Positions 1,631 to 4,709 of a DNA stretch of 4,709 nt are shown piece after piece. Each line of letters opens with the position of its first letter. Position 1 is the stretch's first letter. A program made the position numbers and the translations under genes. The DNA comes from a virus (Duplodnaviria > Heunggongvirae > Uroviricota > Caudoviricetes), in IMG/VR virus record IMGVR_UViG_2695420847_000008; one strand, given 5' to 3'. The notes under the pieces are model-generated. The model was given only the letters and a program-made list of their open reading frames with translations. It did not search any database and was not told the DNA's origin.

Positions 1631-2350
1631 ATGCTTAATACTGTAAAAATATCCAGTTGTAAGTTAATCAACGCTGATTGCCTGGAATTTATCCAGACCT
1701 TACCGGAAAACTCTGTCGATCTGATAGTCACAGACCCGCCATACTTTAAAGTGAAGCCCGAGGGCTGGGATAACCAGTGGAAGGGCGACGATGATTACCT
1801 GAAGTGGCTGGACCAGTGTCTGGCGCAGTTCTGGCGGGTGCTGAAACCTGCCGGAAGTCTTTACCTGTTCTGTGGCCATCGCCTGGCATCTGATATCGAA
1901 ATCATGATGCGTGAACGCTTCAGTGTGCTGAACCATATTATCTGGGCGAAGCCGTCCGGACGCTGGAACGGATGCAACAAGGAAAGCCTGCGGGCGTATT
2001 TCCCCGCCACAGAGCGCATTCTGTTCGCGGAACATTATCAGGGGCCGTATCGTCCGAAAGATGCCGGGTATGCGGCGAAGGGCAGTGCACTGAAACAGCA
2101 TGTGATGGCCCCGCTGATTTCTTACTTTCGTGATGCGCGAGGCGGGTCTGGCAGACTATCAGTTCGGTTGTTACAGACGCCTTCCGCAGTGAAGGCTTTT
2201 TTATTTGTGGTAAATGGGCGGCTGGTGGGTGTTAGGGGCACCCACCAGCCATCTGCTCATGCGTTGGGTTCACAAGCAAACCTCAGGCCCACTGCTTTGC
2301 GCAAAAGCAGAATGAGCCTATCAGAGACAGGCTTAATGATCCATGCTTAA
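1631..2350 (+). pseudogene. Truncated N-terminal fragment of a DNA methyltransferase (about 170 aa authentic sequence plus about 69 aa out-of-frame extension), created by the tandem duplication
   Basis: The 239-aa ORF matches the intact gene through ...PLISYFRDAR, then reads the duplicated small-ORF tail and leader out of frame (GGSGRLSVRLLQTPSAVKAF...), stopping at TAA 2348-2350. It retains the DPPY catalytic motif but lacks the C-terminal FxGxG AdoMet-binding motif. Confidence 0.7.
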
Positions 2351-2852
2351 TACTGTAAAAATATCCAGTTGTGAGTTAATCAACGCCGACTGCCTGGAAT
2401 TTATCCGGTCGTTACCCGAAAATTCTGTTGACCTGATAGTCACGGACCCGCCGTACTTTAAAGTGAAGCCTGAGGGCTGGGATAACCAGTGGAAGGGCGA
2501 CGATGATTACCTGAAGTGGCTGGACCAGTGTCTGGCGCAGTTCTGGCGGGTGCTGAAACCTGCCGGAAGTCTTTACCTGTTCTGTGGTCATCGCCTGGCA
2601 TCTGATATCGAAATCATGATGCGTGAACGCTTCAGTGTGCTGAACCATATTATCTGGGCGAAGCCGTCCGGACGCTGGAACGGATGCAACAAGGAAAGCC
2701 TGCGGGCGTATTTCCCCGCCACAGAGCGCATTCTGTTCGCGGAACATTATCAGGGGCCGTATCGTCCGAAAGATGCCGGGTATGCGGCGAAGGGCAGTGC
2801 ACTGAAACAGCATGTGATGGCCCCGCTGATTTCTTACTTTCGTGATGCGCGT
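2141..2852 (+). repeat. Tandem direct duplication, copy 2 (712 bp), continuing into the intact methyltransferase gene
   Basis: See copy 1. After 2851 the sequence continues with TGCTGCTCTGGGG (intact gene), whereas copy 1 is followed by the duplicated GGCGGGTCTGG segment. Confidence 0.85.
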
Positions 2853-3401
2853 GCTGCTCTGGGGATAACGGCAAAACAGATTGCAGATGCCACAGGAAAG
2901 AAAAACATGGTGTCGCACTGGTTCAGTGCCAGTCAGTGGCAGCTACCGAACGAAAGCGATTATCTGAAATTACAGTCGCTGTTTGCCCGGGTGGCAGAAG
3001 AGAAACATCAGCGGGGTGAACTGGAAAAGCCACATCACCAACTGGTCAGCACATACAGTGAGCTGAACCGGCAGTATACGGAACTGCTGAGTGAATATAA
3101 AAATTTGCGGCGGTATTTCGGTGTGACGGTGCAGGTGCCGTACACCGATGTGTGGACGTACAAACCGGTGCAGTACTATCCAGGGAAACATCCGTGCGAA
3201 AAACCGGCAGAAATGTTGCAGCAGATAATCAGCGCAAGCAGTCGTCCGGGAGACCTGGTTGCAGATTTCTTCATGGGGTCGGGGGCGACAGTGAAAGCAG
3301 CGATGGCGCTGGGACGTCGTGCAACTGGCGTTGAACTGGAGACTGAACGTTTTGAGCAGACGGTGCGGGAAGTACAGGATTTAATCATTCGTAACGGATG
3401 A
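2343..3401 (+). CDS. DNA methyltransferase, N6-adenine/N4-cytosine family (beta-class permuted; PF01555-like), probably an orphan phage N6-adenine MTase
   Basis: 352-aa ORF. The N-terminal region has DLIVTDPPYF (motif IV, DPPY) and RVLKPAGSLYLF. The C-terminal region has KHPCEKPAEMLQQII...GDLVADFFMGSGATVKAAMALGRRATGVE (motif I FxGxG, AdoMet binding). This order of motifs is typical of beta-class amino-MTases. A middle segment (AALGITAKQIADATGKKNMVSHW) looks HTH-like. No adjacent restriction endonuclease gene is visible. Confidence 0.88.
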   Translation: MLNTVKISSCELINADCLEFIRSLPENSVDLIVTDPPYFKVKPEGWDNQWKGDDDYLKWLDQCLAQFWRVLKPAGSLYLFCGHRLASDIEIMMRERFSVLNHIIWAKPSGRWNGCNKESLRAYFPATERILFAEHYQGPYRPKDAGYAAKGSALKQHVMAPLISYFRDARAALGITAKQIADATGKKNMVSHWFSASQWQLPNESDYLKLQSLFARVAEEKHQRGELEKPHHQLVSTYSELNRQYTELLSEYKNLRRYFGVTVQVPYTDVWTYKPVQYYPGKHPCEKPAEMLQQIISASSRPGDLVADFFMGSGATVKAAMALGRRATGVELETERFEQTVREVQDLIIRNG

Positions 3402-3441
3402 GATTGCGGAGTTAATCATGCGTCGTTATTATTCAGCAATC

Positions 3442-3517
3442 GGCCCTTTAGCTCAGTGGTGAGAGCGAGCGACTCATAATCGCCAGGTCGCTGGTTCAAA
3501 TCCAGCAAGGGCCACCA
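3442..3517 (+). tRNA. tRNA with CAU anticodon, most likely tRNA-Ile2 (lysidine type, ileX/ileZ-like), alternatively tRNA-Met
   Basis: Manual cloverleaf: acceptor GGCCCTT/AAGGGCC, D-arm GCTC-AGTGGTGA-GAGC, anticodon loop CTCATAA (anticodon CAT), T-arm GCTGG-TTCAAAT-CCAGC, discriminator A and an encoded CCA. The sequence closely resembles E. coli ileX as I recall it. Confidence 0.8.
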
Positions 3518-3524
3518 TCACATA

Positions 3525-3601
3525 CCGCCATTAGCTCATCAGGAAAGAGCGCCAGCTTTCGAAGCTGGTTGCGCGGAGTTCGGGTCCCCGAAGGCGGTCC
3601 A
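3525..3601 (+). tRNA. tRNA-Arg (anticodon UCG), with non-canonical features; possibly degenerate
   Basis: Manual fold: D-arm GCTC-ATCAGGAAA-GAGC; anticodon arm CCAGC-TTTCGAA-GCTGG (anticodon TCG); T-loop TTCGGGT; 3' TCCA. Irregularities: A-A mismatch in the acceptor stem (position 6:67), A-C mismatch in the T-stem, and G rather than A at position 58. Confidence 0.55.
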
Positions 3602-3614
3602 TTATCTGTATCCT

Positions 3615-3691
3615 GCGTTGTTAGCTCAGCCGGACAGAGCAATTGCCTTCTAAGCAATCGGTCACTGGTTCGAATCCAGTACAACGCGCCA
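3615..3691 (+). tRNA. tRNA-Arg (anticodon UCU, reads AGA/AGG)
   Basis: Manual cloverleaf: acceptor GCGTTGT/ACAACGC, D-arm GCTC-AGCCGGACA-GAGC, anticodon arm ATTGC-CTTCTAA-GCAAT (anticodon TCT), T-arm ACTGG-TTCGAAT-CCAGT, discriminator G and an encoded CCA. Architecture resembles argU. Confidence 0.85.
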
Positions 3692-3705
3692 CACTTATTT
3701 TCCCT

Positions 3706-3731
3706 GGCTCGCTTTTGCGGGCCTTTTTTTT
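3706..3731 (+). terminator. Rho-independent terminator downstream of the tRNA cluster
   Basis: 7-bp stem GGCTCGC (3706-3712) / GCGGGCC (3717-3723) with one G-U pair and a TTTT loop, followed by 8 T (3724-3731). Confidence 0.65.
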
Positions 3732-3964
3732 AAATATCTCACAATTCAGGCGGTTGACTGTTGTCTGGTTTGCGGGGAGTTTGTTAAAAGAAACTGGCAT
3801 GGTGAATCCCCCTGTGCGGAGGGGCGATCAGCAACCAGGTATATGGGATAATCGCGGATTCAGGTGCTGATACTGAATTCACCGGGAGGCACCCGGCACC
3901 ATGCTTTGCCACAAAAGTGTTGTTTCTGTTTTTCTCAAACTATCATCGTTATCCCTTTATTTCC

Positions 3965-3991
3965 GGCTGCGCATGGCGTGGCCTTTTTTTT
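3965..3991 (+). terminator. Possible second rho-independent terminator in the tRNA-to-nanS gap
   Basis: Stem GGCTGCGC (3965-3972) / GCGTGGCC (3976-3983), 8 bp including two G-U wobbles, with a 3-nt loop, followed by 8 T (3984-3991). Confidence 0.4.
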
Positions 3992-4077
3992 ACGACCAGC
4001 CACTGGCAGATGGCCATCCTGTAATTTGATTCCGGTTCCGGCTTTTTAACTCTGTTCCTGTACACGGGAGAAATTCG

Positions 4078-4709
4078 ATGTCGATTAAACATTATGATGT
4101 TGTCAGGGCGGCGTCGCCGTCAGACCTTGCGGAAAAGCTGACACATAAACTGAAAGAGGGCTGGCAGCCGTTTGGTAGTCCGGTGGCCATAACCCCTTAT
4201 ACCCTGATGCAGGCGATTGCAGCAGAAGGTGATGTGGTGGTCAGTGGTGCAACTGAGCCGGAGTGGTACTACGTCATCGTACTGGCCGGGCAGTCCAATG
4301 CCATGGCTTACGGTGAAGGGCTTCCGCTGCCGGATTCATACGATGCTCCGGATCCGCGTATTAAACAGCTGGCGCGCCGCAGTACAGTGACGCCGGGTGG
4401 GGCTGCCTGCAGATATAACGATATTATTCCGGCCGACCACTGCCTGCATGATGTGCAGGATATGAGTACGCTGAATCATCCGAAGGCAGACCTGAGCAAA
4501 GGGCAGTACGGCTGTGTCGGCCAGGGCTTACATATTGCCAAAAAACTGCTTCCGTATATCCCGAATAACGCGGGGATCCTGCTGGTACCATGCTGTCGTG
4601 GTGGTTCGGCATTCACCCAGGGCGCGGAGGGGACATTCAGTGCGGACACGGGGGCCAGCCAGGATTCGGCACGCTGGGGTGTGGGTAAACCGTTATATCA
4701 GGACCTGAT
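4078..4709 (+). CDS. nanS: Prophage sialate O-acetylesterase NanS-p-like protein (N-terminal DUF1737-like region plus SGNH/DUF303 esterase domain); 3' end outside window
   Basis: ATG at 4078 with GGGAG at 4066-4070. Frame 1 is open to the window end (210 codons, no stop; not in the supplied ORF track because it is incomplete). Translation MSIKHYDVVRAASPSDLAEKL...VIVLAGQSNAMAYGEGLP... contains the GQSN block typical of SGNH hydrolases. Both sequence and position (downstream of the phage tRNAs) match nanS-p/yjhS homologues of O157-type prophages as I recall them. Confidence 0.8.
   Translation, partial: MSIKHYDVVRAASPSDLAEKLTHKLKEGWQPFGSPVAITPYTLMQAIAAEGDVVVSGATEPEWYYVIVLAGQSNAMAYGEGLPLPDSYDAPDPRIKQLARRSTVTPGGAACRYNDIIPADHCLHDVQDMSTLNHPKADLSKGQYGCVGQGLHIAKKLLPYIPNNAGILLVPCCRGGSAFTQGAEGTFSADTGASQDSARWGVGKPLYQDL

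Follow-up and report, generated by a model that had tools for sequence, protein, structure and literature searches.

The window, by which we mean the whole stretch of DNA analysed (4,709 nucleotides), carries genes for RusA, a Q-like protein, a DNA methylase, three tRNAs, and the 5′ part of nanS-p (Table 1); the interval of interest, 3692-4077, belongs to the late region of a lambdoid prophage and separates the tRNA cassette from nanS-p, which codes for an esterase. From the end of tRNA-Arg (3691) to the ATG of nanS-p (4078), the actual gap is 386 bp, rather than the 345 bp of noncoding DNA given in an earlier note made from the sequence alone. The interval is 100% identical to NZ_CP050998.1 152005-152390 in Escherichia coli O39:NM F8704-2, where RefSeq annotates just two partial minus-strand "hypothetical protein" pseudogenes. 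The open reading frame that the note had listed at 3864-4049 (+) is indeed there, with a GTG start and 61 aa. The stretch directly before nanS-p, 3992..4077, is 91-97% identical to the E2348/69 and O157 loci.

Several other features of the surroundings were recorded along the way. The ileZ tRNA is read as Ile after lysidine modification; the copy at 3442-3517 is called tRNA-Met (anticodon CAT) by ARAGORN and tRNA-Ile (ileZ) in RefSeq and the phage literature. Positions 1429-2140 and 2141-2852 form a tandem direct repeat of 712 bp with 15 mismatches, which spans the end of the small open reading frame at 1283-1480, intergenic DNA, and the methylase gene through its first two thirds, creating a truncated methylase frame at 1631-2350; as the F8704-2 RefSeq record has a single copy, the window must derive from another assembly or from a near relative. 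Just after the Q-like gene, at 1059-1160, there are two hairpins with T runs, GCGAAACGCAAGTTTTTTTCGC and CCACCGGAAGGTGG, the latter followed by T7 (1139-1159). The site just after a Q gene is where the late promoter PR′ and its terminator tR′ are expected, the source of a short RNA of the StxS or IsrJ type in relatives. No Rfam family matched 1059-1160, and the equivalent unit of a Klebsiella phage matches isrJ (L253 2311-2389, 57 bits). On the minus strand, each repeat copy has a weak match to the Pseudomonas sRNA P26 (at 1507-1571 and at 2219-2283; 24 bits, threshold 36), probably due to chance. About 6.5 kb upstream of the sRNA in the same prophage, a match to the sok antitoxin RNA (RF01794; L001 2526-2706, 61 bits against a threshold of 59) adjoins a gene pair for a DNA cytosine methyltransferase and an NgoMIV-type restriction enzyme.

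Table 1. Genes and predicted elements of the window, in window coordinates
Feature	Position	Strand	Remarks
RusA	139-498
Q-like protein (DUF1133 / Phage_antitermQ)	507-1058
DNA methylase	2343-3401
Three tRNAs (ARAGORN)	3442-3691		ileZ-argN-argO cassette; tRNA-Arg ends at 3691
Intrinsic terminator of the ileZ-argN-argO tRNA cassette	3706..3731	+	7-bp stem and T8; outside the sRNA
Cargo (moron) junction	3733..3738	.	stxAB or terB/tciB-like genes in related phages; break in 933W homology
Predicted sigma-70 promoter of the sRNA	3761..3790	+	-35 TTGTCT 3761-3766, 18-nt spacer, extended -10 TGtTAAAAG 3782-3790; predicted by comparison
Predicted sRNA transcript, STnc100 family, EcOnc04 type	3797..3991	+	~195 nt; RF02076 match, Sp11 identity, northern-probe mapping
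Structured 5′ domain	3797..3904	+	P1-P4; Rfam structure
P1 closing helix	3797-3804/3897-3904	+	closes the junction of P2, P3, and P4
P2	3809-3813/3820-3824	+	Rfam STnc100 structure
P3	3856-3863/3873-3880	+	Rfam STnc100 structure
P4	3882-3886/3892-3896	+	Rfam STnc100 structure
Candidate pseudoknot	3827..3871	+	AUCAGCA 3827-3833 with UGCUGAU 3865-3871 (P3 loop)
U-rich, mostly unpaired segment	3905..3964	+	probable site of Hfq binding and of the seed; homologue of the 3′ module of PasD
sRNA intrinsic terminator	3965..3991	+	8-bp stem, T8; common to PasD1 and PasD2
nanS-p 5′ untranslated region	3992..4077	+	GGGAG 4066-4070 before ATG 4078
nanS-p 5′ part (DUF1737 + SASA esterase)	4078..4709	+	Pfam DUF1737 8.5e-16, SASA weak; RefSeq annotation

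Identity and Distribution of the Small RNA

With all Rfam families searched, STnc100 (RF02076) was the sole strong match in the interval, at 3768-3940 (+) and over the full model (1-206), with 108.1 bits against a gathering threshold of 47 and an E value of 8.9e-24. Simple sequence statistics would not have sufficed: the two terminator-like sites compare with 1.0 +/- 1.0 in shuffled sequences and are not significant alone, the fold energy of the single sequence is likewise not significant (z = -1.2), and folding the whole RNA does not recover P1. We consider the element real because of the covariance-model match (E = 9e-24) and the conservation across sequences, not because of terminator count or fold energy. 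Our results support the proposal, already made in the earlier note, of a small-RNA gene ending at the second terminator, and we put the probability at about 90% that such a gene, self-contained and a member of the prophage STnc100 family, is what the interval contains, with EcOnc04 of O157 Sakai prophage Sp11 as its closest relative. As the 5′ domain is cloverleaf-shaped, a tRNA-like identity was considered, but ARAGORN reports only the three real tRNAs.

The family is widespread. Matches at or above the threshold were also found in the Stx2 phage 933W (207.7 bits), the Stx1 phage BP-4795, Sakai Sp4, Sp10, and Sp11, an ST131 prophage, and Klebsiella phages, and the position of the window copy fits the family's site in the lambdoid late region, with Q or cargo genes on one side and nanS-p or the lysis genes on the other, a layout shared by 933W, Sakai, and E2348/69. 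Relatives among viral contigs (IMG/VR loci) were gathered with a 24-base pattern search. By megablast, the interval has matches at 8456 places in 2866 of 5426 complete E. coli genomes; at least 80% of it is covered, however, in only 15 of these genomes, and its make-up is therefore mosaic. With the 5′ domain alone as query, 377 phage records gave a match, most of them from Stx-converting phages. A stretch that is blank or filled with spurious pseudogenes in RefSeq thus encodes an sRNA that ranks among the most common of E. coli prophages, with matches in about half of the complete genomes, and its annotation would be of practical value.

Hfq-bound sRNAs, often in the form of convergent pairs, have been described from the gap that separates a conserved phage ORF from the cargo ("moron") genes following PR′ (Tree 2014, PMC4104026); the conserved ORF is nanS-p. 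Northern bands in Table S2 of that study measure ~222 nt for both EcOnc04 (Sp11) and EcOnc05 (Sp4), ~177 nt for EcOnc06 (Sp17), ~187 nt for EcOnc13 (Sp3), and ~235 and 247 nt for EcOnc27 (Sp5/stx2); Hfq cross-linking peaks were seen for EcOnc04, EcOnc05, EcOnc06, and EcOnc27, and the 247-nt band of EcOnc27 was destabilized without Hfq (PMC4104026). Their northern probes can be placed on the plus strand of the window, that of EcOnc06 exactly (3839-3873), that of EcOnc04 with two differences (3904-3938), and that of EcOnc05 with four (3827-3861); the Sp4 locus, the source of EcOnc05, is 97.1% identical to window 3600-3913. PasD1 and PasD2 of EPEC E2348/69, said to be homologous to EcOnc13, have been confirmed experimentally with northern blots and RIL-seq (Pearl Mizrahi 2021; Zhu et al. 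2026). STnc100 has been detected in STEC vesicles, and the primers used there match the window exactly at 3799-3818 and 3871-3890; for the Stx2-phage copy, an association of its variants with clinical outcome, namely HUS, has been described (PMC12711010).

Structure of the 5′ Domain

The three stem-loops that the earlier note had picked out in the interval (3809-3824, 3858-3878, and 3882-3896) coincide with P2, P3, and P4 of the Rfam STnc100 structure, to which the family model adds the closing helix P1. Across 20 diverse 5′ domains, P1-P4 are paired in 95.9% of the cells of the alignment, against 37-50% in slid controls. Compensatory changes affect two pairs of P3, and P1, P2, and P4 are almost invariant in this set; in Klebsiella phages, the whole P3 stem has been swapped (CAUGCC/GGCAUG) and an A-U pair of P1 changed to G-C. 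When folded in isolation, the window's 5′ domain has P1, P3, and P4 as its lowest-energy structure. A conserved upstream motif, TCACAATTCAG (3739-3749), resembles the reverse complement of CTGAATTCAC (3875-3884) on the 3′ side of P3; the motif could, in a read-through transcript, compete with the 5′ strand of P3, or it could be a protein-binding site.

Beyond the Rfam helices, the strand following P2 is complementary to the loop of P3. As this pairing (3827-3833 with 3865-3871 in the window) crosses P3, it would form a pseudoknot or else an alternative fold. Complementarity of 6-10 nt between the two strands is kept in all six sequence types, although the sequences themselves differ: in addition to the window type (Table 1), the strands are CUGGUG/UACCAG in 933W, AAUGAUC/GAUCAUU in PasD, AAUGACC/GGUCAUU and CUGGCU/AGCCAG in two further types among the other copies, and CCAGUC/GACUGG in the Klebsiella phages. 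The best complementarity summed over the six types is 43, compared with 24.2 +/- 2.4 with shuffled loops, a value of 43 being reached in 0 of 20000 shuffles; when the loops were reassigned among the types, only the true arrangement reached 43 (1/720). Predicted duplex energies range from -8.5 to -10.5 kcal/mol. The test consists of our own sliding-complementarity script with permutation controls, is not a calibrated covariation method, and draws on few independent types. As the MAFFT alignment places the pseudoknot strands in different registers in the different types, the pair counts given above are confined to P1-P4.

Examination of covariation across homologous loci, named in the earlier note as a check of its proposal, has thus turned out positive, both in the compensatory changes of P3 and in the pseudoknot complementarity. 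The structure line of Rfam STnc100 does not include this pairing, the word "pseudoknot" does not occur in the 2026 preprint, in which RNAalifold was used, and we found no description of this 5′ domain as a pseudoknotted four-way junction; the pseudoknot is possibly a new detail of a known family.

The Cargo Junction

The first terminator was confirmed, with its stem at 3706-3723 and T8 reaching 3731. Its proposed role as the left bracket of the noncoding segment, however, does not hold: window 3600-3732, containing argO and this terminator, is 92.5% identical to positions 3281-3412 of the 933W locus (L004), in which the homologous structure is annotated as a [quoted passage not shown] and the terminator instead closes the tRNA cassette. 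Homology to 933W stops at L004 3412 and restarts at L004 4749, which in the window corresponds to a point junction, 3732|3739. The 1336 bp in between consist of the stx promoter, stxA, stxB, and 45 nt, and window 3739-3904 aligns with L004 4749-4925, downstream of stxB, the STnc100-family RNA of 933W following 75 nt after that gene. In Sp11, Sp10, and phage JLK-2012, terB/tciB-like genes occupy the junction point and the STnc100-family RNA comes next; in Sp4, as in the window, the junction point is empty. A similar layout to that of the window, with argO directly followed by the sRNA and no cargo, is seen in the Sp4 locus (L008 1892-2147), which has another 3′ module and then the minus-strand sRNAs EcOnc08 and EcOnc21 (~271 nt), not present in the window.

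The idea that the RNA fills a slot left empty by the toxin genes has to be revised accordingly. Since stxAB maps to a point junction and the RNA family follows stxB in 933W, and follows terB/tciB-like genes in other relatives, the alignments place the sRNA as the constant right-hand neighbour of the cargo slot and not as its content. This corrects the "toxin slot" picture: the sRNA has a fixed place beside whatever cargo the phage carries.

Predicted Promoter and Transcript

The promoter scan gave no promoter in the window itself, whose -10 element is without the usual final T. Among relatives, however, TGTTA(A/G)AA occurs at a fixed distance before GCAUGGUG in 135 copies with 43 different upstream sequences; in E2348/69 and Sp11, where the TG is missing, the -35 box found at this spacing is a better one (TTGACT or TTGATT), and in the Klebsiella phage ST11-VIM1phi8.1, the homologous place holds a canonical TTGAAA-17-TAAATT with TG, which the scan did find (L253 2465-2493). 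The 5′ end of PasD has been estimated from RNA-seq at NC_011601 741157, which is the base before GCAUGG and 6-7 nt past the -10-like element. From the conserved promoter element and this PasD 5′ end, we infer the promoter and a start at ~3797 in the window, which, with the 3′ end at 3991, would give an RNA of ~195 nt, shorter than the ~230 nt between terminators that had been proposed. The TTGACT at 3754-3759, singled out as a -35-like box in the same proposal, is present in the sequence, but 25 nt separate it from the only conserved -10-like element; it was rejected on this spacing and is probably not the -35 box.

The northern bands published for EcOnc04, EcOnc06, and EcOnc13 are 8-14% longer than a start at GCAUGG would predict; for EcOnc05 and EcOnc27, the excess is ~40%, or ~65 nt. 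The RNA could start farther upstream, near 3770, at the beginning of the Rfam model, or be extended at its 3′ end, and cross-hybridization among the many copies or weak terminators could each explain the excess as well.

Terminator and 3′ Module

The second terminator is present as the earlier note had described it (stem 3965-3983, T8 to 3991). Between it and the 5′ domain, 3905-3964 is largely unpaired in the predicted fold when the 5′ domain is enforced; in the alignment with PasD1/PasD2, the window has a 12-nt insertion here, and CUUUAUU replaces the proposed PasD seed UGUGAG. The Hfq cross-linking peak of EcOnc04 maps to ~3873-3930, a position that is approximate, as versions of the Sakai record differ by ~128-146 nt at 1.94 Mb. 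At least three terminator families can be distinguished among the 3′ modules, which occur together with various types of 5′ domain. In six IMG/VR loci (L137, L144, L151, L164, L191, and L200), two different STnc100 members follow each other on one strand at a distance of 468 or 483 bp, and in L188, the tandem spacing is 267 bp; the copies in L191 differ in both pseudoknot type and 3′ module.

Discussion

Overall, our analyses place a small-RNA gene of the STnc100 family between the tRNA cassette and nanS-p, and three other readings of the same DNA have to be weighed against it. One is that the RNA is a piece cut from a longer transcript, whether one that runs on from the tRNA cassette or the late transcript from PR′, and that the conserved upstream element is not a promoter. 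The weakness of the window promoter and its being missed by the scan agree with this, as do the EcOnc05 and EcOnc27 northern bands ~65 nt above the GCAUGG-start lengths and an Rfam model that starts 29 nt upstream; however, the TGTTAAAA element is kept regardless of whether a tRNA terminator, stxB, tciB, or the tR′-like terminator of Klebsiella precedes it, strong terminators immediately precede the gene both in the window and in Klebsiella, the PasD 5′ end estimated by RNA-seq falls on the predicted start, and the RNAs are abundant in uninduced lysogens. We hence consider processing from a longer transcript improbable as the origin of the RNA.

The segment could also be a cis-acting leader or attenuator controlling nanS-p, as the earlier note had offered as an option: it is directly upstream on the same strand, has a terminator at its end, and no separate nanS-p promoter was found, the scan giving no promoter-like site in 3992..4077. 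Yet the 5′ domain occurs without a downstream nanS-p in E2348/69 PP4 and Sakai Sp3, iraM can intervene, the Klebsiella phage domain precedes a tRNA, the domain is found in tandem pairs, and the 3′ modules are freely swapped among copies, all of which makes a leader function very unlikely. Scarcely credible, finally, is that the segment is nonfunctional filler, a decayed coding gene, or a small protein gene, whether the plus-strand frame at 3864-4049 or a 42-aa minus-strand frame that corresponds to a RefSeq pseudogene. While RefSeq does list partial "hypothetical protein" pseudogenes on the minus strand, no Pfam match was found for the open reading frames of the interval on either strand, a 1-nt indel of the 97% identical O157 copy falls within the plus-strand frame, conservation tracks the RNA helices with compensatory changes, and plus-strand transcripts have been detected in homologues.

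For a self-contained sRNA gene, a mechanism can be outlined in which the family membership, the conserved structure, the position, the terminator, and the mosaic make-up come from our own analyses, and expression, Hfq binding, and RNA partners are carried over from the homologues in which others have demonstrated them. In a lysogen, host RNA polymerase would start near 3797 from a weak extended -10 promoter and terminate at 3965-3991, giving a product of ~195 nt. The first 108 nt would fold into a compact domain with the 5′ end buried in P1, probably shielding it against degradation; Hfq would bind to the U-rich single strand and to the U-tailed terminator hairpin, and the single strand would pair in trans with host and prophage mRNAs. 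After induction, Q-modified polymerase coming from PR′ would pass both terminators and reach nanS-p and the lysis genes; the ability of Q-modified polymerase to override terminators is established lambdoid biology. PasD1 and PasD2 are very abundant in uninduced lysogens and not lowered in an hfq mutant (RNA-seq log2 +0.55 and -0.18), which fits a self-stabilizing 5′ domain.

More tentatively, and at somewhat less than even odds in our judgment, the 5′ domain of the STnc100/EcOnc/PasD RNAs may be a pseudoknotted four-way junction, formed of P1-P4 and the pairing of the post-P2 strand with the P3 loop, that is kept across phages of E. coli, Shigella, and Klebsiella while recombination at the invariant CACCGGGAGGCACCCGGCACCAUGC joint replaces the 3′ module of seed and terminator. 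In that case, the 5′ domain would have its own function and be reused as a module, and new regulators would arise by swapping seeds onto it; its function could be protection from nucleases, with stability independent of Hfq, or a binding site for a protein, the polymerase, or the ribosome. If confirmed, the pseudoknot and the module swapping would explain how the regulators diversify, an increment to a known family rather than a new kind of element.

Among the known systems, the convergent dyads AsxR/EcOnc27 and AgvB/EcOnc06 share with the window the site between cargo and nanS-p and the sense-strand member, but the window has the sense member alone. A dyad is recognized by a convergent sRNA of 51-60 nt with a ~42-nt conserved 3′ region on the opposite strand just downstream; AsxR and AgvB (RF02702 and RF02703), both found in 933W, Sakai Sp10, and BP-4795, gave no match in the window at E up to 1, and 3400-4300 contains no minus-strand terminator. 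With PasD1/PasD2 (EcOnc13 in Sakai Sp3), the window RNA has in common the terminator hairpin and the downstream DNA, at 91-93% identity over 3961-4102 or 3961-4199. The PasD 5′ domain, however, is shorter and without P4, scoring 38-41 bits against STnc100, under the threshold; of the 172-173 nt of PasD, over >75% of which BLAST-level similarity defines that family, only the parts at 3779-3825 (77.6%) and from 3961 onward align, and the seed UGUGAG is absent just upstream of the terminator, where the window has CCCUUUAUUUCC. Judged by the PasD criteria, the RNA of the window does not qualify as PasD, and Rfam assigns it to STnc100.

Within that family, STnc100 of the Stx2 phages 933W and Sp5, also known as EcOnc27 and sRNA103, resembles the window RNA in its covariance-model membership, the architecture of the 5′ domain, the conserved upstream block from TCACAATTCAG onward, and the position relative to nanS-p. 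The two are, however, only ~72% identical in the 5′ domain and differ in pseudoknot sequence, 3′ module, and terminator, and in 933W, the convergent AsxR lies directly downstream, whereas the window is without it. EcOnc04 of Sakai Sp11 differs in what lies upstream: Sp11 has terB/tciB-like genes and a TTGATT -35 box, the window the argO terminator and a block of the 933W/Sp4 type, and homology to Sp11 begins only at 3779. From there on, the two are 97.4% identical (window 3779-4200) and agree in the 5′ domain, the 3′ module, the terminator, the site just before nanS-p, and having no convergent partner. The element is thus already known as a prophage sRNA of Shiga-toxin phages and their toxin-less relatives, and the copy in the window is of the EcOnc04 type.
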